A stretch of 64,000 nt of DNA, from assembly GCA_035283405.1 (NCBI GenBank), contig DATEUA010000141.1, positions 8,984 to 72,983 of the forward strand, read 5' to 3'. A program made the position numbers and the translations under genes. Shown one piece after another: positions 9,468 through 60,842 of this stretch. Every line of letters starts with the position of its first letter. The first letter of the stretch is position 1. The notes under the pieces are model-generated. The model had not been told where the DNA came from and did not search any database. It was given only the letters and a program-made list of their open reading frames with translations. Source of the stretch: Thermoplasmata archaeon (GTDB lineage: Archaea > Thermoplasmatota > Thermoplasmata > RBG-16-68-12).

Positions 9468-10241
9468 ATGCCCGCGAGGGGACCCGAGGACAATGGGAAT
9501 CGTGAGCGGTGCGCCACGGGCATCGAGGGGATCGACCACATCCTGAACGGCGGAATCCCGCGCGGGAACACGGTCCTCGTCGCCGGATCCGTCGGCACGG
9601 GGAAGACCTCGATCTGCATCGAGTTCCTCATCCACGGGGCCCTCAACGCGGAGAACTCCCTGTACATGAGCGTCACGGAGCCCAGCGCGAAGCTACTCCG
9701 AAACCTGATCCCGTTCGACTTCTTCGACGATCGCCTCGTGAAACAGGGAAAGCTCGCATTCGTGGACTTGCCAGGGATCTACGAGAGACTCGGCATCGAC
9801 GAGAAGGCAGAGTTCTCCTTCGACGAGATCAAGCGCCTCGTGGACGCGATTTCGGACCTCGTGGATAAGCACAACGTGAAGCGCTTCGTCCTCGACTCTG
9901 TGACTTCCGTGTCGTACCGGCTCGAGGATCGGGAGCTCATCCGGGAATTCCTCCTTCGGCTCGGGATGGTCCTGAGTGCGAAGAACTGCACGTCCCTCCT
10001 TGTGTCGGAGTTCACGGCGTCCGAAGTAGGATACTCGCGCCTCGGCGTCGCGGAGGCGATCACGGACGGAGTCATCGTCACGGGAAACCTGGAGCGCCGG
10101 GGGGACCTCCTGCGCACCTTGCAGGTCGTCAAGATGCGGGGGACCTCCCACAGCCGGGCGAAGTACGTCCTCGATCTCACGACGAGCGGAATCCTCCTCG
10201 TGCCGCTCCTGAAGGGCGGCAGCATTCCCGGAGGCGGATGA
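9468..10241 (+). CDS. KaiC-like RecA-superfamily ATPase (single domain)
   Basis: GIEGIDHILNGGIPRGNTVLVAGSVGTGKTS (Walker A) and the Walker B-like RFVLDSV are present. A TATA-like catatatcg lies about 30 nt upstream. Confidence 0.7.
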   Translation: MPARGPEDNGNRERCATGIEGIDHILNGGIPRGNTVLVAGSVGTGKTSICIEFLIHGALNAENSLYMSVTEPSAKLLRNLIPFDFFDDRLVKQGKLAFVDLPGIYERLGIDEKAEFSFDEIKRLVDAISDLVDKHNVKRFVLDSVTSVSYRLEDRELIREFLLRLGMVLSAKNCTSLLVSEFTASEVGYSRLGVAEAITDGVIVTGNLERRGDLLRTLQVVKMRGTSHSRAKYVLDLTTSGILLVPLLKGGSIPGGG

Positions 10242-10242
10242 C

Positions 10243-10830
10243 GTGACCGTCACGAGGGAAATCGCGGACAAACTGTCCGCGCTCCCGGAGGCCTCTGCGG
10301 TCTCCCTCCGGCTCGGAACGGACCAGTACTTCGACGCGATCCAAGGGATGCTCGACGTGTTCGCTTCGAAGAACAATCTGGAGGTCTTCTACATCACCTC
10401 GACGATCCCGTCGCAGAGCATCATCAACGCTCTCGAGGTCCTCGAGATCCCCCTCGACCGCATCTGGTTCGTCGACTGCATCAGCCAGATCATGATGTCC
10501 GCCGCGAAGCGGCACACGCATTCGATCGTCGTCGAAAGCCCCACGATGCTCGAGAATCTCATGCTGAAGATCGAGTTCCTGATGCGGAAGCATCCGGAAC
10601 GGAAGGCCCTCGTGGTCTTGGACTCGATCAATTCCCTCGCGATCCACAACAACACGAAGATTCTCAGCGAATTCCTGCACATCTTCGTGAACAATCTACG
10701 CTCCCACGGGGCGTACACAGTGATCTTCTCGATGCAGGAGTACGAGACGGATGAGATTCGTAACATGCTCGTAATCGTCTGCGACGAGACCCTCGAACTG
10801 GGGCACGACCTGAAAGCCCTCGCAGAGTGA
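10243..10830 (+). CDS. KaiC-like paralog lacking a P-loop (probably non-catalytic partner)
   Basis: It sits 1 nt after the upstream KaiC-like gene and has a RecA-like core (KALVVLDSINSLA, Walker B-like) but no GxxxxGKT/S. Local GC is clearly lower than the flanks. Confidence 0.4.
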   Translation: MTVTREIADKLSALPEASAVSLRLGTDQYFDAIQGMLDVFASKNNLEVFYITSTIPSQSIINALEVLEIPLDRIWFVDCISQIMMSAAKRHTHSIVVESPTMLENLMLKIEFLMRKHPERKALVVLDSINSLAIHNNTKILSEFLHIFVNNLRSHGAYTVIFSMQEYETDEIRNMLVIVCDETLELGHDLKALAE

Positions 10831-10979
10831 GAGGTCGTCGGGCGTACGGTCGGCAGGCCCCCGCACCCCTGATTCTCAGCACGGGGAATACACGATTCGT
10901 TCCCTGCTTCAGGGAATCGTTCTCAGGGGGGAGCGGCCGCCGCGCTACCTTTACGCCCTACGAGTCCAACGTCATTCAT

Positions 10980-10993
10980 GCGGCGAAAGCCGC
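10980..10993 (+). promoter_or_regulatory. Conserved 5'-leader hairpin (GCGGC-GAAA-GCCGC, GNRA tetraloop) followed by GGAAGGA and the pilin-1 ATG
   Basis: The same 33-nt leader (gcggcgaaagccgcaggaaggacaaaaccATG) occurs upstream of both pilin paralogs. Confidence 0.5.
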
Positions 10994-11008
10994 AGGAAGG
11001 ACAAAACC

Positions 11009-11464
11009 ATGAGTGCCCTCATCCGGAAGGATGAGCTGGCGGTGTCTCCCGTGATTGCGACGATTTTGATGGTCGCGATCACGGTGGTGCTCGCCGCGGT
11101 GCTGTACGTCATGGTGTCGGGCCTGATTGCCCCACCCGGACTACCGCCGCAGGCGATGGGAGTGAGCATCACCCGTTCCGCGGACGGGACGAACTGGACC
11201 GTCGTGATCGCCCACGTGCCGGTGGGCCTGACGGCGTCCGGGACGACCCTCTCCGTCCAGAACACCGGTGGTGCGATCGCCCTGGCAGCCACGGCGTTTG
11301 AGAGCCTCGCGTACGCGTCCGACGGAGCCGTCTACATCGGCGACGGCGATGCGACGGTCGAGGCCGCCGAACGGCTGCTCATCAGCACCGCGACGTACCC
11401 GACGGGGTACCGTGTGGAGATTTCCGACGGCCGGAACCTCCTCTACGCAGGGAACCTCCAGTAG
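11009..11464 (+). CDS. Archaeal type IV pilin-like protein with a class III signal peptide (Pilin_N type)
   Basis: The N-terminus RKDELAVSPVIATILMVAITVVLAAVLYVMVSG is the hallmark archaeal prepilin signal with a hydrophobic helix. An NWT sequon is present. Confidence 0.75.
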   Translation: MSALIRKDELAVSPVIATILMVAITVVLAAVLYVMVSGLIAPPGLPPQAMGVSITRSADGTNWTVVIAHVPVGLTASGTTLSVQNTGGAIALAATAFESLAYASDGAVYIGDGDATVEAAERLLISTATYPTGYRVEISDGRNLLYAGNLQ

Positions 11465-16810: not shown

Positions 16811-19800
16811 GTGGATGAGGGTCGTTCTTGGCTTCGTACCCATTGGCGGACAGCCCTCGCCCTTGCCTTGGTCTTCGGGATCGCCCTCTTCCTGCGCTTC
16901 TACTTCGTCTACGGCCTCGCCTTCACGAACCTGCAACAGACGTGCGCGGGCGGCTCGGGGCTCCCCGTGTCGGGCGGGTCCGACTCCTTCTACTGGCATC
17001 GCGCCCTCTGCTACTCGTTCGAGACAGGGAAAGACAAAACCTTCGATCCGATGCTGAATTACGGGCCGGGGCTCTTCAATCCGCGCCCGCCCCTCTTCCC
17101 GTGGTTCTCCCTCCTCGTGGGCCAGCTCCTCGCGCCGCTGTTCGCCAGCCCGTGGCAGGCGGTCCTGTTCACGTTCCTCGCCTCGACGGGCCTGTTCGGC
17201 GCCCTGACCGTCTTCCCGACGTACGCCCTCACGAAGGAGGCGTTCGGCCGGAGGGCGGGTCTCGTCGCCGCATTCCTGTTCGCCGTGAGTTCGGCGCACA
17301 TGCAACGGAGCCAGGCGACGGATGCGGACCACGACGCCCTGACCCTGTTCTTCGTCGTCTCGACGTTCTACTTCTTCCTCCGGGGCCTGCGGACGATGAA
17401 GCCCCGCCGGTGGGTCGAGACCTGGTTCCGCCGGGAGGCGATCCTCGCCGGGACGAAGGCGTTCTTCCGGGAGAACCGGCCGTCCGTCCTGTACGCTCTC
17501 CTCGCGGGCTTGTGCATCGCGGTGATCGCTCTGTCCTGGCAGGGGTGGGCCTACGTCCCCGTGATCCTGCTCGTGTACTTCGTCGTCCAGCTGTTCCTCG
17601 ACCGGGTGAGGAGCCAGGACACGATGGGCGTCACGATCCTCTTCACGATCTCCCTCCTCGTCCCCCTCGTCGTCGCGTTCCCGTGGTACGCGAGCCGCTT
17701 CCAGATCCGCGTGTGGTACGACGTGCCCGCGTACCTGTTCCTCGTCGCTGCGGTCCTCGGCATCGTGTTCACGGTCACGCGGGACTACCCGTGGACCCTC
17801 GTGATCCCCGCGACCTTCGCCGGCGGCGGAGTGACGCTCGGGCTCCTCGTCCTCGTGAACCCCGCCCTCGCGAGCGCGTTCGTGAGCGGCGCGGGGTACT
17901 TCGTCCAGACGAAGGTATACGAGACGATCGCGGAGGCCCAAGCCCCCGGGCTTTCACAGCTCATCCTCAGCTTCGGGTTCTTCACCTTCTACTTCAGCAT
18001 CGCGGGCGTCGCGTACATGCTCTGGCTCATCCCCCGCCGGCACGAGGCCTCCTACACGCTGATCGTCGTGTGGACCTTCGCCGCGATCTTCATGGCGATG
18101 GCCGCCGCGCGATTCATCTTCAACGCGTCCCCCGCGTTCGCGGTCGCCGCCGCATTCGCGGTCGACCTGGTCCTGACCCGGGCCGACTTCACGGGGATGC
18201 GCCGCACCTATCGCTCCCTGGCGCAGGGGAGCTGGCGGAACGCGCTTCGGAAGAGCCTCAAGCTGCGTCACGTCCTGACGGGCCTCGTCCTCGTCGGGGT
18301 GGTCCTCCTCCCGAACGTGTACTGGGGGATCGACTCGGGGATCCCTTTCGAGCTCAAGTCCCAGTATGACCGCCAGCTGAACGAGGTTCTGCCTTCGTTC
18401 CTCCGGGCCCCCGGCTATACGGACGGCCGGAGTTTCTACTTCGGGGCCTTCGGGTACTCGATCCCTCAGCCGACGGAGTACTTCCCCGCGGCGTGGTCCT
18501 GGTTCCGGGCCCAGGACGCGGACCGGCCGCCCGAACAACGGCCGGCTTTCCTGTCGTGGTGGGACTACGGCTTCGAGGCCGTCGACCGGGGCCGGCACCC
18601 GACCGTCGCGGACAACTTCCAGAACGGGTTCAACTTCGCGGGTCAGTTCATCACGGCCCAGGACGAGGCCCAGGCGGTGGCCCTCCTCGCGATCCGGTCC
18701 CTCGAGGGCGACTTCCGGCGGAACCGCGGGGTGTTCAGCGGGGCGACGGAGCGCGTGCTCGAGTCGTTCGCGATGCCGAAGGACGACTTCGCCCGCGGGA
18801 TCGCCCGCCCGCAGGACCTGATCCCTCTCGTCCGGGCGAATCCGGAGACGTACGGACGATGGGACGCGGAAATGCAGCCCTTCAACGCCATGTACATCTT
18901 CCTCGCGAATCAGATCACGGTCCGGCTGGACGCCGCGCGGATCGCGGACTTCTACCACGCGGTGCGGACCGCGACGGGGATCGACATCGGCTACTTCGCG
19001 GTCGACTCGAGGCTCTTCCCCATCAGTGCGTCGAACACGGGGATCTTCTATGCGCCCGTGAAGCTGGCGGACCACCGCGTCGTCGAGCTGCCGGACGGCC
19101 GGACCCTCCCGACGGAGTTCTTCAAGATCTTCGTCGACACGGACCGAGGCACCCACATCGCCCTCGAGGACCTCCAGCCGGGGGACCGGGTGTCGAGCCA
19201 GTCGATCGAATACCAGCCCATGTTCTACGACTCCATGTTCTACCGGGCGTACGTCGGGTACGAGCCGTCGGAGGTCGGGGTCCCGAACGACAAGGGGATC
19301 CCGGGCTTCACCCAGACGATGGTCAACTTCCCGCCCCACCCCGCGTGGAACCTCTCCCACTTCCGCGTCGTGTACCGGACCGCGTACTACAATCCGTTCC
19401 CGGACCCGGGGAACCACACGGACGCGTGGCGAGCGATCAACTTCGACGAGGGCGGGCGGTTCCAGGAAGAGATCGGCGCAGGGACCCGGACGGGCGTCGT
19501 GGACCTGAGCACCCAGGCCACGACGACCAACGGGATCGTGTTCCTCCGCTACTACGACGGCGCCTGGGTCAACGGCACGGTCCTCGCAGGGGGCGCCACG
19601 CCGGTGTCCGGCGTGCGCGTGACCGTGACCGACGAGCTGGGGACCCCGCACGACACCGCGACGTCGGACGCCTCAGGCCGATACAGCGTCCTGGTTCCCT
19701 TCGGCAACGTCACCCTGTCGGCCTCCGTCGGCCAGGTCGCGCCCGGGAGCCTCGTAGGGAGCCGCCTCCTCGGGTCGACGACGTTCCCCGTGAGCCTCGC

Positions 19801-22800
19801 GCAGGCCTTGCGAGAGAACGTGGACGAGGACGGGGACGGGATGCCCGACTGGATCATGGCCCGGGACCTCTCCATACCCGGAAGCACGGTCTCCGGGCGC
19901 GCGTTCTTCGACCTGAGCGGGGACGGGGCCTTCGGCGCCCTCGATGAAGCGGTCCCTGGCGCGGCTCTCACCTTCACCCACCAAGACCTGTCCTTCACGC
20001 ACACCGCGACCGCGGACTCGGAAGGGTCCTTCGGCCTCCCGACGATCCCGACCGGCGCGTACCTCGTGGAGGTGCGGGCGGACGGACACTCCGTCCCAGC
20101 ACAGGACATCGACCTCGCCTCGTCCGACACCCGAAAGGACGTCGCGATCCCGTTCGCCAGCCTCGACGGAATCGCCTCGGGCGCCGCCGGGGGCGTCCCG
20201 GCCGACATCGAAGTCGTGGACGAGACCACGGGCATCGTGGTCCGCGCGGCCGCTGCGGACGACGGCGCGTTCGAGATCCGGCCCCTCCTCGCCGGGAACT
20301 ACACGATCACGGCATCCTCCGGGGACCTCGCCTCGAACCCCGAGCGGGTCCGCGTGACGCAAGGCGTGCAGCCGCTCAACTTGACCCTCGTGGTATCAGG
20401 CCGGGTCGCCGGCACGACGCGCCTCTTCGGGGTCGACGTCCCGTTCGCGTCCGTCGAGTTCCAGAAGGCCTCGGAGGTCCGCCTCGTGCGGACGGTTCGG
20501 TCCGATGCGTCCGCCTCCTTCGACGTCGTCCTGCCGGCAGGCGAATGGAACGTGGCCGGACGGCTCTACCAGGGCACCGCCCTGTACGCGACCCTGGGAC
20601 GGGTGAGCGTCCGGCCCGGCGAGACGACGCCCTACGTGGCGCGGTTCGTGGACGGCGCGAGACTCGAGGGCGACGTGAACGGCACCGCGACGGACAGCGT
20701 GGACGTTCTGGGGCAGGTCGCTTTCCTCGGCGCCTCCGGGGACTGGTGGATCCGCACGGGTGTGCGAGGAGGATACCTCGCCTTCCTCCCGCGGGGGACG
20801 TACGCGTTCCAGGCCTTCACGGCGAACTCCGGGCTCCAGGGGAACGTGACCCTCGTCACGTCCCACCGACTCGACCTCCAGCTCGTCGCGGGGACGTCCG
20901 CGACGGCTCGCGCGTTCCGGGACCTGGACGCGGACGGGGACTTCGACGCAGGGGAGGGGGTCGCGGGAGCCGAGGTCCGCCTCACGGACGACGCGGCCCA
21001 CCGCGTCCTTGCGGTCTCCGACGACACCGGGGTGTTCCAGCTCTTCGGGTTCGCGAACCGTACCTACTCCGGATTCATCACGGCTCCGGGTTTCAACGGG
21101 ACGGCGGTCGGGCCTGCGACCCTCGCAGAGATCCGGTCCACGGCCCGCTTCGAGCTCTTCCCGCGGCGGGTCCAGGTCCACGGAGCCCTCGTCCTCGATG
21201 GCGTCCCGCTCCTGCGGAGCCTCACGATCCAAGCGATGGCCGCCGGGGACGGAGCCCGGACGACGACGGATGAGACGGATTCGAACGGCGGGTTCCTCCT
21301 CGATCTTCTCCCGGGCCGGTACGAGCTGATCGTCGACACGAACGTGTCCGACTCCCGGGATGTCCGGTTCCAGAACCGCGGGATCGACACGCTGACCGTC
21401 CCGGTCGGGAGCGACCGTCTGCTTCGGGACATCGACGTCGTCGTCCGAGTGCGCGTGACGGGGAACGCGACCCGGTCCGGCTCCGCGGTCGCGTCGACGG
21501 TCATCTTCGAGGGTCCCGACGTGCGGACCGTCGCCTCGGGGACGGGAGGGTACGAGGTGTACCTCCAGGCGGGGGACTACTCCGTCCGCGCGGTGCACTC
21601 GGCCCCGCCGAGCGAATTCGGATTCATGGACGATACGACGATCTCGGGCCCTGTCCGGCTCGGCCTCCCCCTCACGCAGGCTGCGAAAGTGTCCGGCCTG
21701 ACCCTGTTCCAGAACGTCGCGGTCCAAGCCTCCATGCCGATCGCCTTGGCCCGATCGGAGGGCGGGTTCCTCGAAGTGGAGAGCACGTCGACCGGCAGCT
21801 ACAGCACGGTCCTCGTCCCTGGGAACTACTCGGTCCGCCTGGAGGCGGAGCGGACGATCCAGGAGGCTGCCCTGACCCGCTTCTACCGGTTCTCGTTCGT
21901 GGGGACCCTCGTCGTCGCACCCGGCGCCTCCGCGATCACGTTCCATCTGGACCTGGCGCGGACCCTCGACAACACGACCGTCGCGGGCCGGACAAGCCGC
22001 TCCGGGATCGGTGTCGACGCGACCCTCGAATTCGTCGCCCGCAGCTCCGGGTCCCTCGGCGCCGCGGGAACGAGTGCCTCGGACGGGTCCTACGCGATCG
22101 GCCTGGCGCCGGGCACGTACGACGTGTACGCCTTCCGGGCGGTGGGGAGCTCCGCGTTCCTTGCGAGCCTGACCGTGCCCCATGCGGACACGATGCCGTT
22201 CGACGTTTCGTTGAAGTCCGGGTTCCTGCTGGGAGGTGTCGTGACGGACGTCGCGGGGGCTCGCACGACGGCGAGCGTGACGGTGGTGGGGGACGCCCGA
22301 TTGGACCGCGCGACAGACGCGCTCGGGGCGTACCAGGTGTTTCTCCCCGAGGGCGCGTATACGGTCACGGCCACGCGGTCCGGGACGGAGCGCGGGATCG
22401 CGGTGGAGTACCGGGCGACGGCGTCCATGGACCTCGCGGCGGACACGGTGCTCAACCTGCGCCTCGCGAAAGTGGAGCGGCGCTCCGTCACCCTGTCGTG
22501 GGACCCGGTCCAGCGAGAATCCGTCTCCCCCGGCGGCACGATCGTCTACTCTGTCACCGTTCGGAACACGGGGAACGTGCGGGACACATACACCCTCTCC
22601 GGCCGTCCGACGGATTGGACGTTCGACTTCGCCCCCGGGTCCACGTCCCTCGATTTCGGGACGACGGGGAGCACGACGTCCGTCGTCGTGACGATCCGCG
22701 TGCCCTCGGATGCCCCCGTGGTCCACGGGCCCGTCACCGTCGTCGCGAGCTCCTCGGACGGATCGACGTCCGGGACCGTGAACGTAGAGGTCGACATCCG

Positions 22801-23305
22801 CCGGGTCTTCGGCCTGACGATGAAAGTCCTCGGGACCGCAGGGACCTTTGACGGGCAGACCCTCGAGTACACCGTGGAGCTCAGGAACACGGGCAACGCG
22901 CAGGACAGCGTGACCGTGTACGTGGCGAACCCGGATGACCTGAGTTCCTCCGGGTGGACGGCCCTCCTCGGCCGCGAGGGCGGCCTCTCGCCCTCGACCG
23001 GGCGCCTGGAACATCTCCCCGTGAACGCGAACTCGACGGCCCGCCTGCGCCTGCAGCTCCAGTCCCCGAAGGGCGCGAGCGGTGCGACGGTCGTCCTCCA
23101 GGCCGTCTCGGACGACGCGCCGTCCGTCACCGCGTCCGCGGTCCACGTCGCCACGCTCCCCAGCCTTTCCGTACCGGGCGGAATCCAGGCGACGGGCCCG
23201 AACGTCGTCCGCGCGCCGGGCACGAACTGGACCCTCGTCAGTGTCGCGGTCGCGGCAGGCGCCGCGGTCGCGGCGGTCCTCTTCCTGACGCGCCGGAGGC
23301 GGTAA
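16811..23305 (+). CDS. aglB: Oligosaccharyltransferase AglB/STT3 (N-terminal about 900 aa) fused to a very long C-terminal extracellular repeat region
   Basis: A polytopic N-terminal TM domain is followed by the STT3 signature WWDYG (FLSWWDYGFEAVD). Downstream are repeated beta-sandwich modules of about 90 aa (GxVxxxxGxPVxGVRVTVTDxxGxxxDTATSDASGRYSV, CarboxypepD_reg-like), a Ca-binding-like DEDGDGMPD, two CARDB/DUF11-like modules (VTVRNTGNVRDTYTLS and ELRNTGNAQDSVTV) and a C-terminal TM plus RRRR anchor. At 2164 aa it is about twice the usual AglB length. Confidence 0.75.
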   Translation: MDEGRSWLRTHWRTALALALVFGIALFLRFYFVYGLAFTNLQQTCAGGSGLPVSGGSDSFYWHRALCYSFETGKDKTFDPMLNYGPGLFNPRPPLFPWFSLLVGQLLAPLFASPWQAVLFTFLASTGLFGALTVFPTYALTKEAFGRRAGLVAAFLFAVSSAHMQRSQATDADHDALTLFFVVSTFYFFLRGLRTMKPRRWVETWFRREAILAGTKAFFRENRPSVLYALLAGLCIAVIALSWQGWAYVPVILLVYFVVQLFLDRVRSQDTMGVTILFTISLLVPLVVAFPWYASRFQIRVWYDVPAYLFLVAAVLGIVFTVTRDYPWTLVIPATFAGGGVTLGLLVLVNPALASAFVSGAGYFVQTKVYETIAEAQAPGLSQLILSFGFFTFYFSIAGVAYMLWLIPRRHEASYTLIVVWTFAAIFMAMAAARFIFNASPAFAVAAAFAVDLVLTRADFTGMRRTYRSLAQGSWRNALRKSLKLRHVLTGLVLVGVVLLPNVYWGIDSGIPFELKSQYDRQLNEVLPSFLRAPGYTDGRSFYFGAFGYSIPQPTEYFPAAWSWFRAQDADRPPEQRPAFLSWWDYGFEAVDRGRHPTVADNFQNGFNFAGQFITAQDEAQAVALLAIRSLEGDFRRNRGVFSGATERVLESFAMPKDDFARGIARPQDLIPLVRANPETYGRWDAEMQPFNAMYIFLANQITVRLDAARIADFYHAVRTATGIDIGYFAVDSRLFPISASNTGIFYAPVKLADHRVVELPDGRTLPTEFFKIFVDTDRGTHIALEDLQPGDRVSSQSIEYQPMFYDSMFYRAYVGYEPSEVGVPNDKGIPGFTQTMVNFPPHPAWNLSHFRVVYRTAYYNPFPDPGNHTDAWRAINFDEGGRFQEEIGAGTRTGVVDLSTQATTTNGIVFLRYYDGAWVNGTVLAGGATPVSGVRVTVTDELGTPHDTATSDASGRYSVLVPFGNVTLSASVGQVAPGSLVGSRLLGSTTFPVSLAQALRENVDEDGDGMPDWIMARDLSIPGSTVSGRAFFDLSGDGAFGALDEAVPGAALTFTHQDLSFTHTATADSEGSFGLPTIPTGAYLVEVRADGHSVPAQDIDLASSDTRKDVAIPFASLDGIASGAAGGVPADIEVVDETTGIVVRAAAADDGAFEIRPLLAGNYTITASSGDLASNPERVRVTQGVQPLNLTLVVSGRVAGTTRLFGVDVPFASVEFQKASEVRLVRTVRSDASASFDVVLPAGEWNVAGRLYQGTALYATLGRVSVRPGETTPYVARFVDGARLEGDVNGTATDSVDVLGQVAFLGASGDWWIRTGVRGGYLAFLPRGTYAFQAFTANSGLQGNVTLVTSHRLDLQLVAGTSATARAFRDLDADGDFDAGEGVAGAEVRLTDDAAHRVLAVSDDTGVFQLFGFANRTYSGFITAPGFNGTAVGPATLAEIRSTARFELFPRRVQVHGALVLDGVPLLRSLTIQAMAAGDGARTTTDETDSNGGFLLDLLPGRYELIVDTNVSDSRDVRFQNRGIDTLTVPVGSDRLLRDIDVVVRVRVTGNATRSGSAVASTVIFEGPDVRTVASGTGGYEVYLQAGDYSVRAVHSAPPSEFGFMDDTTISGPVRLGLPLTQAAKVSGLTLFQNVAVQASMPIALARSEGGFLEVESTSTGSYSTVLVPGNYSVRLEAERTIQEAALTRFYRFSFVGTLVVAPGASAITFHLDLARTLDNTTVAGRTSRSGIGVDATLEFVARSSGSLGAAGTSASDGSYAIGLAPGTYDVYAFRAVGSSAFLASLTVPHADTMPFDVSLKSGFLLGGVVTDVAGARTTASVTVVGDARLDRATDALGAYQVFLPEGAYTVTATRSGTERGIAVEYRATASMDLAADTVLNLRLAKVERRSVTLSWDPVQRESVSPGGTIVYSVTVRNTGNVRDTYTLSGRPTDWTFDFAPGSTSLDFGTTGSTTSVVVTIRVPSDAPVVHGPVTVVASSSDGSTSGTVNVEVDIRRVFGLTMKVLGTAGTFDGQTLEYTVELRNTGNAQDSVTVYVANPDDLSSSGWTALLGREGGLSPSTGRLEHLPVNANSTARLRLQLQSPKGASGATVVLQAVSDDAPSVTASAVHVATLPSLSVPGGIQATGPNVVRAPGTNWTLVSVAVAAGAAVAAVLFLTRRRR

Positions 23306-23306
23306 G

Positions 23307-24074
23307 ATGCGTTCGGTGCTCTTCGCCCTAGCGGTCCTCGTCGCGCTCGCGGCGTTCGTCCCGGTCTCAGGGCGCGTCGACGGCCAGTCCGTCTTCGGGA
23401 GCATCGCGGGCCCGACGGCTCTCGCACCCCGGCAAAGCGCGACGTACAATGTGACGATCATCGGCGGACCGGAGACTCCACCGGTGAACTACAGCCTCGA
23501 CTTCTACCTCGACGGCGCGGACCTCACGGGCGGTTCCCCGACGAAAGCGGCTCCCCAGACGACGTCCGGGAGCCAGACGACGATCCGCATCGACGTGACC
23601 GCGCCGGAGGGGGACCAGGTCGTCATCCTGGTCGTCCGGATCTCCGCGCAATCCGGGGACGTCGTCGTGAAGGGGACCGCGGACCTGTCCATCCAGGTCC
23701 TCACCCCGATCATCCTCCGCGCGACGTTCCGCAATGACGCCTCGACCTCCGCGCTCAACGTGACGGTACGATTCTACGTGGACGACGAGCTCGTCGGGAC
23801 GCGCTCCATCGCGCGCCTCAACGGGTCGGCCTCGCAGACCGTGAACATGAACTACCTGCCGGTAGGGATCGCCGCGGGCGCCCATTCCGTCCGCGTTGAG
23901 GCGGACTTGGATCGAGATGGAGTCATCGACGGGGCTCGGGGGGAGATCGTCCTGTCGGACTTCTTCATCCAGGAGTCTGCATCCCTCAGCGAGGGCTGGA
24001 ACCTGATCATCGGGATCGCGGTGTTCCTGATCGTCTTCGTGATCGCCGCCGCGGCGCGGCGACGACGGACCTGA
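23307..24074 (+). CDS. Secreted protein (signal peptide, C-terminal TM anchor), probably co-transcribed with aglB
   Basis: Its start is 2 nt after the aglB stop. It has MRSVLFALAVLVALAAFVP, NxT/S sequons, CARDB-like beta-rich repeats and a C-terminal LIIGIAVFLIVFVIAAAARRRR. Confidence 0.5.
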   Translation: MRSVLFALAVLVALAAFVPVSGRVDGQSVFGSIAGPTALAPRQSATYNVTIIGGPETPPVNYSLDFYLDGADLTGGSPTKAAPQTTSGSQTTIRIDVTAPEGDQVVILVVRISAQSGDVVVKGTADLSIQVLTPIILRATFRNDASTSALNVTVRFYVDDELVGTRSIARLNGSASQTVNMNYLPVGIAAGAHSVRVEADLDRDGVIDGARGEIVLSDFFIQESASLSEGWNLIIGIAVFLIVFVIAAAARRRRT

Positions 24075-24075
24075 G

Positions 24076-24738
24076 TCACGCAGGCTCGAGGAGCCAGACG
24101 TCCGCGTGGTTCCGCAGGAGCATCCCGAGACGCGTCCTCGAGATCCCCGCGCGCTTCAGGAGCGGGTTGAGCCGGTCGTTCGGCGGGACGGCCTTCTCCC
24201 CGTCGACCCAGACGGACGCGAGGGGCTCGTAGCGGACCGGCTTTCCTCCGACGCGGATCCGCGCGGCGGCGGACTCGCGGAACGTGTGGAGCACGATGTG
24301 CAACGAGGTGACCGCGATAGGTCGGACCTTCGCATTGTAGTACTCCGCCGCTTCGCGGTGGACGGGGGCGAACGCACCGACACGCTTCGCGTATTCCCGC
24401 CAGCCGCGCTCGAAGGGAGAGCGGGGGCTCGCCATGCACCGGTCCGTCACGGGGCGGACTTCCTCGAACGTCGCGAGAATCGACTGCCCGTCCCGGAGGG
24501 CTGCGAGGAATTCGGGCCAGTCCGCATACTCCTCCTCGGGCATGGCCGAGGCGAGGTGCTTCGCCAGGCCCACGAGGTAGTTGTTCAGGCCTGCGACGCC
24601 GACCTTCGCGGCGAGATCCTCGAGGAACAGGTGGGTCGCGATCTCCACGAACGGATTGCTCTCCGGGAGCCGGACCTCCGTCGAGGTCATAGGTCCCCCT
24701 TCAGGTGGGCTCCCCGCATGACGAGGCCGTACACGCAC
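24076..24738 (-). CDS. Uncharacterised protein, paralog A of a pair, last gene of the GTPase operon
   Basis: It aligns block by block with the upstream gene (EYYNAKVRPIAVTSLHIV / EYNENVHDIAVCNFCVF and LLRNHADVWLL / LLRNYECVYGL). No family assigned. Confidence 0.4.
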   Translation of the reverse strand: MRVRPRHAGSPPEGGPMTSTEVRLPESNPFVEIATHLFLEDLAAKVGVAGLNNYLVGLAKHLASAMPEEEYADWPEFLAALRDGQSILATFEEVRPVTDRCMASPRSPFERGWREYAKRVGAFAPVHREAAEYYNAKVRPIAVTSLHIVLHTFRESAAARIRVGGKPVRYEPLASVWVDGEKAVPPNDRLNPLLKRAGISRTRLGMLLRNHADVWLLEPA

Positions 24739-25307
24739 TCGTAGTTCCGCAGGAGCGCCCGGACATGTTGCTCGCTGATGTTGATCTTCTCGAGATTCTT
24801 AGACGAGATCTTCGTCTCGCCCCGCCATCCTTTCGTCGCAAGGAGATAGCACTGGAGCGGGTTCCCAGAGACGAAGATGTTCTTCGCGATCTCCTCCCGA
24901 AAGCGTTCGTGGAAGACGCAGAAGTTGCACACCGCGATGTCGTGGACGTTTTCATTGTACTCCGAGGCCACGGCGACGTCCGCGGGGCTCATCTGGCCGA
25001 CGCTGAACCGGGTCCTCAGGATCGTTGGGACGTAGCAGCACTGACGCATCGCGTAGAGGTATCCCACGATATCCCTGTCCACGTCCGTGATCGCCATGTC
25101 CGTGAGGGGCATGACCTCGCCTTCGATGCTGAACGCGGTCCGGCCCTCCCGGACGGCCACGTTGAACGAGGTCCATCCGAGGTAGCCCTCCTTGCCCATC
25201 CGGCTCGCGAGGTTGTCTCCGACCCGCTGCCAGAACTCGACGACGCCTTCGGATCCGGCCTTGTCGATCATGTCCTCGATGAGGGACGCGAGGGCGACGT
25301 CGAGCAT
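24687..25307 (-). CDS. Uncharacterised Cys-containing protein, paralog B
   Basis: It has conserved Cys pairs (RQCCYVP and VCNFCVF). GC is lower than the flanks. A V4R/Bet3-like fold is a speculation only. Confidence 0.4.
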   Translation of the reverse strand: MLDVALASLIEDMIDKAGSEGVVEFWQRVGDNLASRMGKEGYLGWTSFNVAVREGRTAFSIEGEVMPLTDMAITDVDRDIVGYLYAMRQCCYVPTILRTRFSVGQMSPADVAVASEYNENVHDIAVCNFCVFHERFREEIAKNIFVSGNPLQCYLLATKGWRGETKISSKNLEKINISEQHVRALLRNYECVYGLVMRGAHLKGDL

Positions 25308-25332
25308 GATCAGGGACCTCGGACCATGGGGA

Positions 25333-26121
25333 TCACACGAAGGACGTCAGGACCTGCTTGAGGTGGGCCTTCCATTCTCGTTCCGCCTTCTCCGCAACCG
25401 TGTCCCCGCGCAGGTCGCGGACCCGATCGAGCACGAACGCAAGGAACCGGTCCCAGTGGTTCGGGGTCATGTACGCGGTCGACGTACCGATCTCGTTGAA
25501 CCCTAAGGTGACGATCTCCTCGAGCTGACCCGGCCCGACGAGCGAGCCGATCCTGCCTCGGAGGAACGCCTCGATCTCCTTGTTCTTTCGATACTCCTTC
25601 GTCTCCTCGAACTTCTCGACGAACAGGATGCGGGTAAGCTTCTTGAGCTCGGCCGCAACCGCCTCGTCGTACTTTCCGAGGATCTCTGGCGTGATAGGCC
25701 TCGATTCGAACAGGTGGCGCACGACGATCGACGTCTTCACGATGTTGCTCAGGATTCCCTGCATCTTGGTGAGCTCGACCCGCTTCGTCGTCAGGAACAC
25801 GAGGAAGGCGCGGTCCCCGACCCCGGAGATGACCATCGTGCCCGCCTCGAACTGCTGGACGGACATCATCATGTTCTGACCGCTCAGCTGGCTGCAGATG
25901 TGGCCCAGGTTCCCCTTGAGGAGGTTCAGGAGCCGATACTGGCCCGGATCGAGGGTCTGCGGGATGGACGACGCGAAGATCCGGCCGTCGACCCCGAGGA
26001 ACAGGGCGATGTCGAGGCCGTTCTCCTCCCGGGAGCGGCGCAACTCCGTGTCGAGGAGGTGCTTCAAGTGGCCGACCGTCGCGGCCCCCATCGTCTTGTC
26101 GACCTGGCCCGCGTAGGGCAT
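25333..26121 (-). CDS. Protein with an N-terminal Roadblock/LC7 (MglB-like) domain and a C-terminal domain of unknown function
   Basis: LDIALFLGVDGRIFASSIPQ...MVISGVGDRAFLVFLT fits the Roadblock alpha-beta-beta pattern. The C-terminal ~150 aa are uncharacterised. Confidence 0.45.
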   Translation of the reverse strand: MPYAGQVDKTMGAATVGHLKHLLDTELRRSREENGLDIALFLGVDGRIFASSIPQTLDPGQYRLLNLLKGNLGHICSQLSGQNMMMSVQQFEAGTMVISGVGDRAFLVFLTTKRVELTKMQGILSNIVKTSIVVRHLFESRPITPEILGKYDEAVAAELKKLTRILFVEKFEETKEYRKNKEIEAFLRGRIGSLVGPGQLEEIVTLGFNEIGTSTAYMTPNHWDRFLAFVLDRVRDLRGDTVAEKAEREWKAHLKQVLTSFV

Positions 26122-27045
26122 CTAGCCGCCCCGTCTCAACCCGAACGAGCGGAAGACGATCTCGAGAGCTTCCTCAGGCGAGTAGTCGTAGTCCCAATGG
26201 GCCCGCATCCGCCGGATCTTCTCGATCACCCGCGCGGGGGCCTTCATCGCCTCCGCCGTCTTGATCGCCTCGTCGAACGTCTTCGCGTACGAACGACCGG
26301 CTTCCTCCGGCACGAGGAAGGGGCTCGCGCGGACGACGATGCCGACGCCCCGGGCGAAGATGTACGGATAGACTCCCTCGCCGTGGTGGACGCCGCGCAT
26401 CTTGAGGATCTTGACCGTCCGGTTGAAGGCCCCTCCGATCGGATAGTACTCGAGGTGGATCGCAACGTCGGAGAGGTAGATAGGGAGGAGGATGTCCTCC
26501 CCGATCGTCTCCCCCGGGCGGGCGTGTTCCTCGACCGTGCACAGGACCACGCCGAGCTGCTTCAACGTGTAGAACAGCTTGCCGATGAGTTCGCGCTGCT
26601 CCAACTTGTCCTGGGTCGCCCAGATCACCGGGGTCATCGGATCGATCACGACCCGGGTGGCGATATTGTAGTCCGCGCGCGCCTTCACGAGCTGAGGCAG
26701 CTGCTCCTCGATCATCTTCTTGAAGTTCTTTCCCTTGAGATGGATGAAGAACAGGGACTTCTCGTAGTGCTTTCGCATGTCGAAGCCCATCAGTTCCGCC
26801 TCGCGCATGATCTGTTCGGGCGGCTCCTCTAGGCTGACGTAGAGGCCCTGCTCCCCCTGCTCGATCCCTTCCATAAGGAACTGGATCGCGAATGTCGACT
26901 TCCCGGTCCCGCTCGACCCGAGAATCACGATCGTGGACTTGGGCCAGTAGCCGCCCTCGATGAGGTCGTCAAGGCCTGGAATCCCGCTCGGGACCCGTTC
27001 CGACTTCGCCGATGGTTCCGGTTCCTGTGTCTCCTGAGCCAGCAT
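26122..27045 (-). CDS. KaiC-like RecA-superfamily ATPase
   Basis: GIPGLDDLIEGGYWPKSTIVILGSSGTGKST is the Walker A region. It also has RVVIDPMTP (Walker B-like) and KILKMRG. Confidence 0.7.
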   Translation of the reverse strand: MLAQETQEPEPSAKSERVPSGIPGLDDLIEGGYWPKSTIVILGSSGTGKSTFAIQFLMEGIEQGEQGLYVSLEEPPEQIMREAELMGFDMRKHYEKSLFFIHLKGKNFKKMIEEQLPQLVKARADYNIATRVVIDPMTPVIWATQDKLEQRELIGKLFYTLKQLGVVLCTVEEHARPGETIGEDILLPIYLSDVAIHLEYYPIGGAFNRTVKILKMRGVHHGEGVYPYIFARGVGIVVRASPFLVPEEAGRSYAKTFDEAIKTAEAMKAPARVIEKIRRMRAHWDYDYSPEEALEIVFRSFGLRRGG

Positions 27046-27144
27046 GGGGTGGGAGCCTCCGCTATCGAGGATTCGGCGAACGATGCCATCCGCCTTTTTA
27101 ATAGGGTTCCGACCTGGAAATCTACCCTGATAACGAGACGCATG

Positions 27145-27738
27145 TCACACGAGGACGAGGCCGCCACGCGCCGCGATGGCGAGTGCCAGGGCCCGGAACG
27201 AGGCCTCGACGTTCTCCGCCGTCTTCGCGGAGGTCAGGAAGTGGGATGCGGCGTGGCGGTCCGCGACGTCGCGGAGCCGCTCCGGGTGGATCACGAGGCG
27301 GTCCCTCAAGTCGCATTTGTTCCCGAGGAAGACGACCGGCACGTCCCCGGCCTGGTCCTTCGCGGTCCTCACCCATTCCTCGAGTTCGTCGAGGGTCTCG
27401 TCGCGTGTGATGTCGCACACCGCGAGGACTCCCTGCGCCCCCTGGAAATATGCCTGCTTGAGACTGTCCCGGAGGCTCCGCTGGCCCATGATGTCGTAGA
27501 TGATCAGGGTGATCTCCGAAGGCCCCTCGGAGGTCTCGAGGACGAGGGATTTCTTTGCCACCTTCATGCCCAAGGTCGACAGGTAGCGGTCCGAGAACTG
27601 GTCGTACGCGAACCGATGGAGGAGGGACGACTTGCCGACCTCCATCGGACCGACGAGGCAGATCTTGAACTTGATCGGCTGGTCCGTCCCGCGCCCCGCC
27701 ATGGTCGCCGTAGGAATGACCGAGGCGTCTATTTGCAC
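27145..27738 (-). CDS. Ras-superfamily (Rab/Ras-like) small GTPase
   Basis: All five G motifs are present: G1 GPMEVGKSS, switch-I T (STLG), G3 DIMGQ, G4 NKCD and G5 SAK. The probable start is the internal Met (MAGRG...) near 27702. Confidence 0.7.
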   Translation of the reverse strand: MQIDASVIPTATMAGRGTDQPIKFKICLVGPMEVGKSSLLHRFAYDQFSDRYLSTLGMKVAKKSLVLETSEGPSEITLIIYDIMGQRSLRDSLKQAYFQGAQGVLAVCDITRDETLDELEEWVRTAKDQAGDVPVVFLGNKCDLRDRLVIHPERLRDVADRHAASHFLTSAKTAENVEASFRALALAIAARGGLVLV

Positions 27739-27789
27739 GTTGTCGAGCGGTTATCTTCTCAGATAGGGAGCGTAGACCGTGCTCGATGC

Positions 27790-28479
27790 CTACAGCTTCC
27801 CGCGCACGGCGTCGAGCTTGTCCGCGAGGGCCTGGTTCCTCGCCGCCACGGCGACCTCTCCGCGGGTCTTCTCGATCAGGCTGCGGGCGATGTCCTGCTT
27901 CCGCTTCAGCGCGACGAGGGCCGTCGGATAGTCGAAGCGCATGAGGGCGTCGAGAATTCGCTCCATCTTCTCTAGGAACGCGGAGGACTGGACGATGTCG
28001 CCGCGCCGGAGATGCCCCAGCGCGAACCGGCGGAGCTCTCCCACGACGTCCCCGAGACCGAGCAGGAAGGCGGTGTCCGTCACCCCGAGTTCCTTCGGCA
28101 CCGGAAGCCGATCGGACTCGAGGATCGCGTGCACGAGGAAAGACTCCGCGGCCTCCTGCATCGCATTCTCGACGAGGCCCGCATGGAAGAGGTCCGGGTG
28201 CCCGTCCAGCAGGCTTCTCAGCTTCATGACCTCCTCGCGGGTCTCGCGGAGCGTGCCGTCGACATCCTGCCCGCGGTGCATCCCCTGGATCGCGGTGCCC
28301 GAGAGGCGGGCAATCGTCCGAGAGGACTTGATTGCAAGCTCGCGGACCTCGTCTTTCTCGTCGAGGCGGGCTTCGATGTCCCCGATCACCTCGTCGAGGT
28401 TCTTCACGGGCGCGAGGATGCCCACTCGAGTTATTTGAGGGTTCGCACGCAGCTTCGTAGGGAGGTCAGCGTCCCTCAC
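27790..28479 (-). CDS. Translin-family protein
   Basis: An all-helical ~230-aa protein with the translin C-terminal signature FLLGLGDVVGELRRFAL and an N-terminal RELAIKSSRTIARLSGTAI...HR block. Confidence 0.5.
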   Translation of the reverse strand: MRDADLPTKLRANPQITRVGILAPVKNLDEVIGDIEARLDEKDEVRELAIKSSRTIARLSGTAIQGMHRGQDVDGTLRETREEVMKLRSLLDGHPDLFHAGLVENAMQEAAESFLVHAILESDRLPVPKELGVTDTAFLLGLGDVVGELRRFALGHLRRGDIVQSSAFLEKMERILDALMRFDYPTALVALKRKQDIARSLIEKTRGEVAVAARNQALADKLDAVRGKL

Positions 28480-30890: not shown

Positions 30891-31427
30891 ATGCACTCGA
30901 ACGATTGGTCTCGTTCCCTTACGGAACGTCAGCGCGAGGTCCTCGCAATCGTCGTCGAGAACAAGGTGTACAAGAACCGCGACTCGAAGATCACGGACCT
31001 CGCGGTCCAGATGGGCATTGCGCCTTCGGCCGTCGCGAAGCACCTCCTGGAAATCGAGAAGACCGCTCTCCTCAACGTGACGGTGACTCCGTCCGAGCAG
31101 GGGAAGCGCGTGTACGAGCGGCTCCAGTTCGAGCCGCGGCCCGAGCGGCGACAGACGTCCGAGGTCCTGGGGCCTGACAAGGTCGACGTCCTGCACTTCC
31201 TCCGGGACCATCCCGACGCGACGGCAACGGAGGTGTCGCTGGAACTGACCCTGTCCGAGTACACCGCGTTGAACAGCCTGAGGGTTCTGACGGCGGTGAG
31301 CCTCGTCACGAAACAGAGGGGCCCCGCGATCCGACGGGGCGTGCCTCCGTACGTGTATCGTTTGACGCCTCACGGCCAGGCCGTGCACGACCGGCTCCAG
31401 ACCACGGAAGCCGTAAGGGAGATGTAG
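30891..31427 (+). CDS. Transcriptional regulator with two winged-helix domains (TrmB/MarR-like)
   Basis: LTERQREVLAIVVEN...ITDLAVQMGIAPSAVAKHL is HTH-like. A second winged helix (VLHFLRDHPDATATEVSLELTLSEYTALNSLRVL) follows. Confidence 0.55.
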   Translation: MHSNDWSRSLTERQREVLAIVVENKVYKNRDSKITDLAVQMGIAPSAVAKHLLEIEKTALLNVTVTPSEQGKRVYERLQFEPRPERRQTSEVLGPDKVDVLHFLRDHPDATATEVSLELTLSEYTALNSLRVLTAVSLVTKQRGPAIRRGVPPYVYRLTPHGQAVHDRLQTTEAVREM

Positions 31428-48135: not shown

Positions 48136-48145
48136 AAAGGCGGAG

Positions 48146-48229
48146 CGCCGCGGGGGAGATTTGAACTCCCGAGGCCTCGCGGCCACCAGCTCTCCAGGCT
48201 GGCGCCCTACCGGGCTAGGCGACCGCGGC
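48146..48229 (-). tRNA. tRNA-Ser (anticodon GGA) with a long variable arm
   Basis: The minus-strand sequence GCCGCGG-TC-GCCTAGCCCGGTAGGGC-G-CCAGC-CTGGAGA-GCTGG-TGGCCGCGAGGCC-TCGGG... folds with a 7-bp acceptor stem, D-arm, anticodon loop CUGGAGA, a 13-nt variable arm and a T-arm GGGAG-TTCAAAT-CTCCC. No encoded CCA. Confidence 0.8.
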
Positions 48230-57378: not shown

Positions 57379-58530
57379 TCAGCGGACTTCGTCGACATCG
57401 CTCGATGTCGCCACGGGGCCCGTGTAGACCTCCTTGCCGAGCAAGGACTTCGACTTGACCCCCGTGATCACGATCAGCACGCGTACCGTGTTCGCGAGCT
57501 TGTCCTCGACGGAACAGCCCCAGATGATCCGGGCCTGCGGGTTGACCTTCTCGCCGACGATCTCGGCTGCGCGCTCCGCCTCGGAGACCGTGAGGTCGGG
57601 TCCGCCGACGACGCGCACAAGGGCGCCTCGCGCGTGGGTGAGGTCGACTTCGCCGAGGAGGGGCGACTCGAGGGCCTCGTTGATCGCGTATTCGATCCGA
57701 TCCCGCTCTTCCTCGCTCTCGCCGATTCCGATCATCGCGACGCCACCGCCCTTCATGATCGTCATCAGGTCCGCGTAGTCGAGGTTCACGAGCCCGGGCT
57801 TCGTGATGATCTCCGTCATGCCCTTGATCGACTGCATCAGGATCTCGTCGGCGACCTTGAACGCGGCGTTGATCGGCAGGCGGGGCACGAGCTCGAGGAG
57901 CTTGTCGTTGTAGATCACGATCGTCGTATCGCAGAACTTGCGGAGCTTGTCCAGGCCGGACTGGGCGTTCTCCATGCGGATCTTGCCCTCGGACTTGAAG
58001 GGCATCGTGACGACGCCCATCACGAGGGCGCCCTCCTCCTTCGACACCCGCGCGACGTACTGCGCAGATCCCGTGCCGGTCCCGCCGCCCAAGCCCGCCG
58101 TGATGAAGACCACGTGGGCGCCGCGGATGAACTCGCGGATCTCCTCTTCGCTCTCACGGGCCGCCTGCTCGCCGACCTCCGGAAGGGCGCCTGCGCCGAG
58201 CCCCTTCGTGAGACGCTTCCCGATGAGGATCTTCTTCGGTGCGTGGACCGCGAGGAGATGCTTCGCGTCCGTGTTCACGGCGGCCATCTGGGCACCCGAG
58301 ATCCCGGCCTCGCTGCACCGGTGGATCGTGTTCGAGCCGCCGCCGCCGCATCCGACGATCTTAATCGAGACGTTGATCGATTCGACGATCTTCTCGATTT
58401 CTTCGTCCTCGTTCGTCTTCGCCGCCTTCGTCCCCTTCGACGGCGCGGGCTTCTCCTGTTCCTTCGCCTCTTCTTGATGACGGGCCAAGGCCTCGTTCAG
58501 AATGGACTTTACCATGTCATCCCATCCCAT
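57379..58530 (-). CDS. ftsZ: Cell division GTPase FtsZ
   Basis: [12 protein letters not shown], the tubulin signature GGGTGTG and NTDAKHL are all present. A TATA-like ttttaaatag lies about 35 nt upstream. Confidence 0.9.
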
Positions 58531-58639: not shown

Positions 58640-59422
58640 CTACGACGGGGTCCTAGAGTCGCCGTTCGCGACGTGCACCGTGACGCCCGCGTTCGTGATG
58701 TCGAACGGATACACGAACTCCTCGTGGCTGGAGCCCTTGTACTTCTCCACGGAGATGAACCGCTTGATCCCCGAGTCGTCCCGGAGCTTGTGGAGCCGGA
58801 CCTCGCCCCGGGCGAGGAACGCCTCCGGCGGGGCCTCCCCTTCCTCCGGGAGCTCGAGGGTCAGGATCGACGTAAGCCCGGCTTCCGTGAGGAACCGGAT
58901 GAAGGACTGGGTCGTGAGGGTCTCCTCGAACTCCCGCATGCAGAAGTACTTCAGTGCCGTCATCGAGTCGACGACGATGCGGTGGTATTTCCGCTTCACG
59001 AACAGCTTCTTGAGCAGCTGCAGGAGCGAGTGCACGCTGACCTCCTGGCTCTCGAAGTCCGGGGTCTTGCGGATCCCTTCCCCGACGGCCCGCATCTTCA
59101 CGGGTTCCGTCTCCGTGGAGATCTCCATGATCGGGGTCGGCTCGAACCGTCGGATGTCCGAGATCGCGTCGAGCACGTCGAGATCGTCCAGGTTCCAGCG
59201 GAACGGACGCAGGTTGATCTTGAGCTCGTTGGGGGGCTCTTCGAGCGCGATGAACAGACATCGTTCCCCGCCCTCGAGACCCTCCCGCAGGAATTGGATC
59301 GAGAGGATGGTCTTCCCGGATCCGGGCGGGCCCGACACGATGTACGGCCGGCCCGGGACGAGCCCCCCGTGAAGCATCTTGTCCAGTCCGAGCACGCCCG
59401 TGCGGATCTTCGCCAATCCCAT
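58640..59422 (-). CDS. KaiC-like ATPase with an internal insert, tandem paralog 2
   Basis: GLDKMLHGGLVPGRPYIVSGPPGSGKT is the Walker A region. It also has RIVVDSMTALKYF and KYKGS. Confidence 0.65.
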   Translation of the reverse strand: MGLAKIRTGVLGLDKMLHGGLVPGRPYIVSGPPGSGKTILSIQFLREGLEGGERCLFIALEEPPNELKINLRPFRWNLDDLDVLDAISDIRRFEPTPIMEISTETEPVKMRAVGEGIRKTPDFESQEVSVHSLLQLLKKLFVKRKYHRIVVDSMTALKYFCMREFEETLTTQSFIRFLTEAGLTSILTLELPEEGEAPPEAFLARGEVRLHKLRDDSGIKRFISVEKYKGSSHEEFVYPFDITNAGVTVHVANGDSRTPS

Positions 59423-60510: not shown

Positions 60511-60842
60511 TGGGACGGGAACATGAAGCGACCCTGCGGTTCGACGATAAAGGTTCCGACGTGAGAATCACGGGGGCGCCGCGCGTGTCGACGGCCGACG
60601 AAACCGCCCTCCCGGGCGCGCGACCCGATAGCGGGGGATGGACTTCCAGAGACGGAGGCTCGACCTCGCGTCCTTTTGAACCATCGATCTCCGGGTCTCT
60701 CTCCGGGGACCTGGGCGTCCCGGGCTATGAGCCCGACGGGATATCCTGGCTACCCCACCCCGCTGCCTCGGAGGACGCGGCCCTGAGAGGGCGGTGCCGT
60801 CCGCATCCGCGCGGGGCGCATAAAGGTATCGCGGGCCGTCGT

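Follow-up and report, generated by a model that had tools for sequence, protein, structure and literature searches.

A conserved operon of KaiC, Roadblock-fold and par genes in Thermoplasmata, with a Rab-like GTPase gene beside it in one sublineage

The locus and the closest described systems

KaiC paralogs have been proposed to act as signalling hubs in archaea (Makarova, Galperin and Koonin 2017, as cited in PMC5847659 and PMC4858521), and few partners of these hubs are known. We analysed a 64,000-nucleotide stretch of DNA, hereafter the window, from an uncultured Thermoplasmata archaeon of an RBG-16-type lineage of soil and sediment. An earlier reading of this DNA, made from its letters alone (the sequence-only reading), had placed six co-directional minus-strand genes in positions 24076-28479. 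They were described as a translin-like gene, a small GTPase gene, a KaiC-like gene, a gene for a protein with an N-terminal Roadblock domain and two genes for Cys-containing paralogs, in that order, and the coordinates of the open reading frames (ORFs) confirm this layout. The Roadblock-fold protein is called RB262 here and the two paralogs parB and parA. The reading that we favour, with moderate confidence, is that the conserved unit of this locus is a KaiC-centred sensory module encoded by the four-gene operon KaiC-RB262-parB-parA. The GTPase gene is most simply seen as a lineage-specific addition.

As far as archaeal KaiC-centred modules are summarised in the papers citing the hub proposal, the locus resembles them in two ways. 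The operon combines a single-domain ATPase of the KaiC family with small partners that are not enzymes, to which a distant clade adds winged helix-turn-helix (wHTH) proteins, and the genome carries several KaiC paralogs together with an inactivated KaiC-like gene. It departs from the modules so summarised in its partners, which are a Roadblock-helical protein and two par paralogs outside Pfam and NCBIfam; no KaiB-like, Death-like, MEDS or REC partner was detected here.

Roadblock proteins are known regulators of GTPases, as exemplified by MglB and by CvnB of the conservons (PMC4316618). In contrast to both the MglA/MglB pair and the conservons, the GTPase encoded here is Rab-like and not MglA-like by its best matches and is absent from nearly all related loci, and RB262 bears an extra C-terminal helical domain. 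Unlike the conservon CvnA-D, the six genes encode neither a histidine kinase nor CvnC/DUF742, as judged from Pfam and NCBIfam.

A further comparison is with the TRAPP core, composed of Bet3, Trs31 and Trs33 and of the longin-fold subunits Bet5, Trs23 and Trs20, and with the Asgard TRAPPC3 and Roadblock proteins (PMC10933270). The two paralogs match Bet3-family folds, Cys ligands occur as in the Zn site of Thor-TRAPPC3 (PMC10933270), and the paralogs are encoded together with a protein whose fold is of the Roadblock/longin class and, within this lineage, also with a Rab-like GTPase. However, the comparison concerns genes and predicted folds only. No sequence homology to TRAPP is present, Bet3 is not the best fold match, RB262 is Roadblock-like rather than longin-like, the constant partner is KaiC rather than a GTPase, and the host belongs to Thermoplasmata and not to Asgard. 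The par proteins are also distinct in sequence from the V4R sensors PoxR, MopR and DmpR and from archaeal V4R proteins such as MJ1460. The V4R profile (PF02830) matches none of 26 par members at E up to 10, and the Cys pattern of the par family is different (CPF ... PFCxxHQxxR ... C(C)Y). A comparison by hhalign of the par family with the V4R family found in the operon of the distant clade gave a probability of 0.2%, the alignments being shallow.

A conserved four-gene operon with its own upstream element

Conservation was followed in 47 related loci, 6 obtained by exact-protein look-up and 41 from a scan of one genome per species, in which genes were placed by tblastn. KaiC, RB262, parB and parA occur together, with order and strand kept, in 42 of the 47 loci, and the remaining five are truncated by the end of a contig. 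Identity within this set is 56-90% for the KaiC-like ATPase and goes down to 36% for RB262, 53% for parB and 47% for parA. The parA orthologs (47-82% identical) immediately follow parB in every complete related locus. In the window, successive spacings from KaiC to parA are 0 nt, 25 nt and an overlap of 4 nt in which the parA ATG and the parB stop share the sequence ATGA. These values fit translational coupling of the four genes. The tight packing, of 0-50 nt, that had been claimed for all six genes is thus true of the stretch from KaiC to parA. It does not extend to the translin and GTPase genes, where gaps of 87 nt (translin-GTPase) and 99 nt (GTPase-KaiC) each contain a conserved promoter-like element.

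The element directly upstream of KaiC is found as one copy in at least 20 related loci, with the shared form CGTTATCA-N5-GATTCC-N4-GTCGGAAT-N4-TTTAAAAAG. It consists of a palindrome, GATTCC-N6-GGAATC, abutting a TATA-like box (TATTAAAAAG). In the window it reads GTTATCA-N5-GATTTCC-AGGTC-GGAA-N5-TATTAAAAAGG, and this is the single match in the 64 kb, as compared to 0.01 expected. Whatever lies further upstream, be it nothing, a membrane protein gene, a methyltransferase gene or the GTPase gene, the element stays beside KaiC. From these sequence features we infer that it is the operon's own promoter/operator. As a separate observation, a 178-aa protein with two HTH/wHTH domains (HTH_10 and MarR_2) is encoded at 30891-31427 (+), past purD and folD at a distance of about 2.4 kb from the module. 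Its position is conserved in locus L005, and it is a candidate binder of the operon palindrome.

The KaiC-like nature of the first gene product, as previously claimed, is clear from its match to Pfam PF06745 (7.5e-45, 153.5 bits against a cut-off of 26.6). A Walker A motif (GSSGTGKST), an SLEE catalytic pair and a Walker B motif (VVIDP) can be read in its sequence. This protein is not a circadian KaiC, since it has a single domain and its scores against the corresponding models (NF006799 / TIGR02655) are 124 bits versus 408 and 79 bits versus 546. It also remains under the NCBIfam cut-off for KaiC_arch_3.

Roadblock domains are general regulators of, and platforms for, NTPases. RB262 had been presented as a Roadblock/LC7 protein, and this holds at one level of description only. 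Single-sequence and profile searches of Pfam, NCBIfam and the PDB gave no match, and the Roadblock/LC7/MglB profile (PF03259) was not matched at E up to 10 by any of the 27 family members. The AlphaFold2 model built with 27 homologs (predicted local distance difference test, pLDDT, 79) shows an a-b-b-a-b-b-b-a succession in the N-terminal domain, followed by a helical bundle. This N-terminal domain can be superposed on MglB or Roadblock structures and is nearer to Roadblock than to longin domains. Because the modelled domain fits while the sequence searches are empty, the Roadblock assignment is right at the fold level only.

The two terminal genes are indeed paralogous (29% identity between parA and parB, E 4e-20). 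Conserved Cys pairs had been described in both, and they are present in parB, where C90, C127, C130, H133 and C191 are invariant across 41 loci. They do not extend to parA, which keeps a single Cys (C85, in 37 of 39) and several His, with H111 in 39 of 39 and H131 and H135 also kept. Neither protein has a Pfam or NCBIfam match, and for parB the PDB gave no sequence match either. A V4R/Bet3-like fold had been put forward as a speculation. It is borne out as a distant structural likeness on which two methods agree. The parB model (pLDDT 89.7) is a two-layer a/b structure superposable on V4R, Bet3, H-NOX and BcsD members, and its best 41 Foldseek matches all fall in this one fold group, with a best E of 6e-3 and a probability of up to 0.98. 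The top match is BcsD, and V4R sensor domains score equally with Bet3. Cys-based Zn sites are documented in PoxR and in Thor-TRAPPC3 (PMC10933270; PMC5847659). Together with the invariant Cys4-His set, this precedent makes a Zn site in parB plausible, and by analogy we regard that set as a probable Zn site.

The par family is rare. When its profile was scanned with HMMER against 1.84 billion representative proteins, just 107 clusters were recovered. Full-length divergent members, some of them bacterial, share the pattern C-P-F ... PFC-x2-H-Q-x2-R ... C(C)Y. One protein, P0392 (L052, 29-1315), joins a KaiC ATPase and a par domain in a single fusion; another, P0386, is a wHTH protein (DUF7347) fused to a par domain; and the gene of the divergent member P0351 has an inactivated KaiC-like gene (DUF7504) on one side and a DUF7343 gene on the other. 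These architectures independently link the par domain both with KaiC-family proteins and with outputs that bind DNA. A pointer in the opposite direction comes from Hodarchaeota (Asgard), where the 492-aa protein P0408 carries a C-terminal par domain (L051, 707-4244, in the metagenome-assembled genome contig JBHLKG010000244). Its gene is convergent with the adjoining gene of a 593-aa fusion of a TrmB-type wHTH to a Ras GTPase. By eye, the N-terminal 300 aa of P0408 look like a degenerate GTPase and a Roadblock domain, an impression supported by no tool.

In distant Thermoplasmata (L001-L003, L006, L041-L045), the same core lies inside a larger operon. Its 5′ part has an HVO_A0114-type wHTH gene nearby, then the gene of a 172-176 aa protein ending in a wHTH. 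There follow a protein of approximately 300 aa that has a genuine V4R domain (Pfam 3e-6 to 7e-5), KaiC and RB262, and then a coiled-coil protein of 426-866 aa with wHTH-like matches, parB, parA and a GNAT-like protein. The combined V4R, wHTH, coiled-coil and GNAT-like content of this operon points to a transcriptional output.

Taking gene content, folds, co-conservation, fusions, the conserved upstream element and the native codon composition described below as its basis, the KaiC-centred module may be pictured as follows. The four genes would be driven from their own promoter, controlled by a palindromic operator. ParB and parA, with ligand-sensor folds of the V4R/Bet3 type, would most likely form a heterodimer in which parB carries a structural Zn site, like PoxR and Thor-TRAPPC3. 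RB262 would be a dimeric Roadblock adaptor. Together, the par proteins and RB262 may feed a signal into the KaiC-like ATPase or, conversely, read out its state. The GTPase gene would be a later, separately promoted insertion between the translin gene and the operon promoter, restricted to the immediate relatives of the window, and its product was possibly recruited as an extra switch acted on by RB262. The module would not need a GTPase encoded in cis.

Two observations weigh against this picture. The operon of the clade to which the window belongs encodes no DNA-binding output, and a GTPase gene inserted beside a Roadblock gene in the same orientation is also what a functional GTPase-Roadblock pairing would predict. 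The individual domain types are all known already. The four-gene module, its operator and the par family, which neither Pfam 2025 nor NCBIfam 2026 contains, appear to be undescribed: full-text searches, whose coverage leaves Makarova et al. 2017 (PMC5717392) outside, gave no description of them. The operon defines a conserved partner set for an archaeal KaiC, namely a Roadblock-helical protein and a rare sensor-fold family bearing Cys and His, and the fusions and the candidate operator make this set a concrete target for biochemistry.

The presence of other KaiC-family genes also fits the favoured reading and the hub proposal. The window holds four KaiC genes in total and one DUF7504 gene; the three further KaiC genes and the DUF7504 gene indicate that the KaiC family is expanded in this genome. 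A second KaiC-family ATPase gene at 9468-10241 (+) (Pfam 1e-52) is immediately followed by the inactivated KaiC-like/DUF7504 gene at 10243-10830 and then by an archaeal type IV pilin gene at 11009-11464 (+). This cluster (9468-11464) looks like a separate KaiC-based module, possibly one that regulates pili. On the minus strand, an FtsZ gene (57379-58530) is immediately preceded by two tandem KaiC-family genes, at 58640-59422 and 59423-60571. An RNase HII gene is nearby at 61172-61822.

Table 1. Genes and putative control elements of the locus (positions in the window)
Feature	Coordinates	Strand	Description
Translin-family gene	27790-28407	-	205 aa from GTG at 28407, a start that fits homologs; ORF extendable to 28479
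GTPase gene	27145-27702	-	Ras superfamily, Rab-like; 185 aa from ATG; GTG at 27738 a possible alternative start
KaiC gene	26122-27045	-	Single-domain KaiC-like RecA-superfamily ATPase (Pfam PF06745); first gene of the conserved operon
RB262 gene	25333-26121	-	262 aa; Roadblock/LC7 fold (about aa 14-140) and C-terminal helical bundle (about aa 145-259)
parB	24687-25307	-	206 aa; predicted V4R/Bet3/BcsD/H-NOX-like fold; invariant Cys4-His set
parA	24076-24690	-	204 aa; parB paralog; final gene of the conserved operon
KaiC-operon promoter/operator, putative	27093-27134	-	Near-palindrome and TATA-like box between the GTPase stop and the KaiC ATG
GTPase upstream element	27729-27766	-	CTATC-N6-GATAACCGC..CAACG.G.AAATAG

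The Rab-like GTPase gene and alternative readings of the locus

The small GTPase is a Ras/Rab-like protein and not a generic P-loop protein. It matches Pfam Ras (PF00071) at 1.8e-34, with 119.1 bits against a cut-off of 21.6; the second Pfam match is Roc, at 8e-26. Its closest PDB relatives are Rab1 and Rab8 (E 3e-28). The complete set of G motifs announced previously can be read in its sequence: G1 GPMEVGKS, G2 T, G3 DIMGQ, G4 NKCD and G5 SAK. The prenylation Cys of strict Rab proteins is missing from its C-terminus (...AIAARGGLVLV), as is the case in other archaeal Rab-like proteins (PMC4915359). By eye, RabF motifs are partly retained (YFQGA versus YYRGA, AVCDIT versus LVYDIT), the F1-F3 positions being poorly retained. 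The sequence-only reading considered such a protein uncommon outside Asgard archaea. This view is not supported: Rab-like GTPases outside Asgard, Thermoplasmatales included, were reported earlier (PMC4915359), and our search recovered over 60 clusters of small GTPases related to this one. Few of these have a source name, mostly Thermoplasmata or Methanomassiliicoccales. Orthologs with at least 77% identity make up four clusters only, and the next relatives are about 50% identical.

The idea that the GTPase and its neighbours form a self-contained switch module fails on co-conservation, the criterion that the sequence-only reading had itself set for its refutation. Among the 32 loci holding both translin and KaiC, only L007, the nearest relative of the window, carries the GTPase gene. 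Locus L050 has it too, having been fetched by means of the GTPase itself. With so rare an occurrence at the locus, the GTPase does not belong to the conserved module. Adjacency of a GTPase gene and a Roadblock gene in one genome is therefore not evidence for a module until conservation has been checked.

The slot between the translin gene and the KaiC promoter has a variable content, and is an insertion hot spot. It holds nothing in L021, L023, L024 and L039. A DNA methyltransferase-like ORF occupies it in L008 (5532-6716) and L020 (5577-6716), and a predicted membrane protein of 155-204 aa in L014 (1603-2079), L015 (816-1337), L016 (1099-1713) and L032 (2825-3292). The element upstream of the GTPase gene (Table 1) is common to L007, L050 and the window, in contrast to the diverging flanks, and it differs from the KaiC element. 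From its sequence it is probably the promoter region of the GTPase gene itself. Since this gene lies outside the KaiC promoter and has its own upstream element, it can be regarded as a separate unit inserted into a variable slot.

In one alternative reading, the GTPase would be functionally unrelated to the module. Its gene would have arrived by chance in an intergenic slot that tolerates insertions, and the protein would work alone like its relatives. We see this as a possible but less likely reading. It agrees with the unrelated cargo, or none, found in the slot elsewhere, with the separate conserved upstream element, and with the relatives of the GTPase (about 47-50% identical), which stand alone in unrelated contexts where no Roadblock, par or KaiC neighbours were found. 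It is less easily reconciled with the fact that the gene has the same orientation as the module, is kept in at least 3 sampled relatives at 77-81% identity and has a fully native G+C content at third codon positions (GC3). The Roadblock fold, moreover, is a classic partner of small GTPases, and RB262, the product of a neighbouring gene, has that fold.

In an alternative of the opposite kind, the locus would encode a proto-TRAPP or Ragulator-like system. RB262 and the Bet3-fold pair would then be a platform with guanine nucleotide exchange factor or GTPase-activating protein activity for a Rab-like GTPase, encoded in cis here and in trans elsewhere, and KaiC would be an accessory. The composition does echo the TRAPP core, with its Bet3-fold subunits and its subunits of the longin/Roadblock fold class, and the gene of a GTPase closest to Rab1 and Rab8 has been inserted immediately next to the module and points the same way. 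MglB and CvnB are Roadblock proteins that regulate GTPases (PMC4316618), the Hodarchaeota par-domain protein adjoins a TrmB-Ras GTPase fusion gene, and the abundance of related small GTPases in the protein database makes a partner in trans possible. However, 31 of the 32 related loci spanning the interval from translin to KaiC lack the GTPase gene, which lies outside the operon promoter and has an upstream element of its own, and the relatives of the GTPase elsewhere lack Roadblock, par and KaiC neighbours. It is KaiC with which the par domain is constantly associated, direct fusion included. At the level of folds, BcsD is the top match, V4R scores as well as Bet3, and RB262 resembles Roadblock domains more closely than longin domains. 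Overall, we judge this reading improbable. An arrangement of the TRAPP-GEF/Rab/longin type, which the sequence-only reading had suggested, meets the same obstacle of GTPase co-occurrence (1 of 32 loci, plus L050).

A little more doubtful still is the stronger claim that RB262 and the par pair are a prokaryotic, non-Asgard counterpart of TRAPP or Ragulator coupled to KaiC, with the adjacent Rab-like GTPase as substrate. If it were true, the partnership of Bet3-fold proteins, Roadblock proteins and small GTPases would predate the Asgard-eukaryote lineage and extend beyond it. In any case, a non-Asgard archaeon here encodes a Roadblock-fold protein next to two proteins of Bet3/V4R fold, joined in one sublineage by a Rab-like GTPase. 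Such a juxtaposition bears on the pre-eukaryotic assembly of the building blocks of eukaryotic GTPase-regulating complexes.

Composition and neighbouring genes

The region had been described as having a local GC content of 55-60 %, clearly below its flanks, suggestive of acquisition. Neither statement withstands measurement. The six genes each have a GC content of 0.62-0.69, as compared to 0.664 for the window, and their GC3 (0.87-0.91; 0.909 for the GTPase gene) lies at the top of the range around a window mean of 0.83 (standard deviation 0.05). A modest dip is located at codon position 2 (GC2 0.37-0.41), which reflects amino-acid composition rather than foreign origin. A horizontally acquired island was accordingly rejected: GC3 is at or above the window mean, and the core is syntenic beside purD, folD and AglB throughout the clade. 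A defence system was rejected as well. Apart from a weak P-loop match PADLOC gave nothing, with parA in particular having no match, the synteny is vertical and the neighbours are housekeeping genes.

The translin-like gene product was correctly recognised by the sequence-only reading. It matches Pfam Translin (PF01997) at 4.6e-7, with 30.5 bits against a cut-off of 25.9, and an NCBIfam model of the PRK14562 type at 2e-56, below the equivalog cut-off. In the close clade its gene adjoins purD. No translin gene is present in the flanks of the distant-clade loci L001-L003 and L041-L045, and in L006 divergently oriented genes intervene. Translin is a syntenic neighbour in one clade only, outside the conserved module.

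On the other side of the operon, positions 16811-24074 (+) encode a giant AglB/STT3 oligosaccharyltransferase of 2164 aa, with a long C-terminal array of CarboxypepD_reg-like repeats, and then a CARDB membrane protein. This pair is convergent with parA, the stops being 1 nt apart, and the synteny is found in most related loci and in the distant L001. The pair comes straight after parA not only in the window but also in nearly all close loci and in L001, a position which might suggest that the module serves N-glycosylation or cell-surface biogenesis. This reading is very unlikely. The convergent orientation rules out co-transcription, L002, L003 and L041-L045 keep the core but have lost the synteny, and divergent par members adjoin KaiC-like or wHTH genes and not glycosylation genes. 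The conserved convergent AglB-CARDB neighbours look like plain synteny.

Two minor features of the window may be added. Very long antisense ORFs, such as the 1021-aa frame at 20396-23461 (-) opposite AglB, show an inverted pattern of GC across codon positions and are artefacts of the high GC content. A tRNA-Ser(GGA) at 48145-48229 (-) is the sole Rfam/ARAGORN match in the window.

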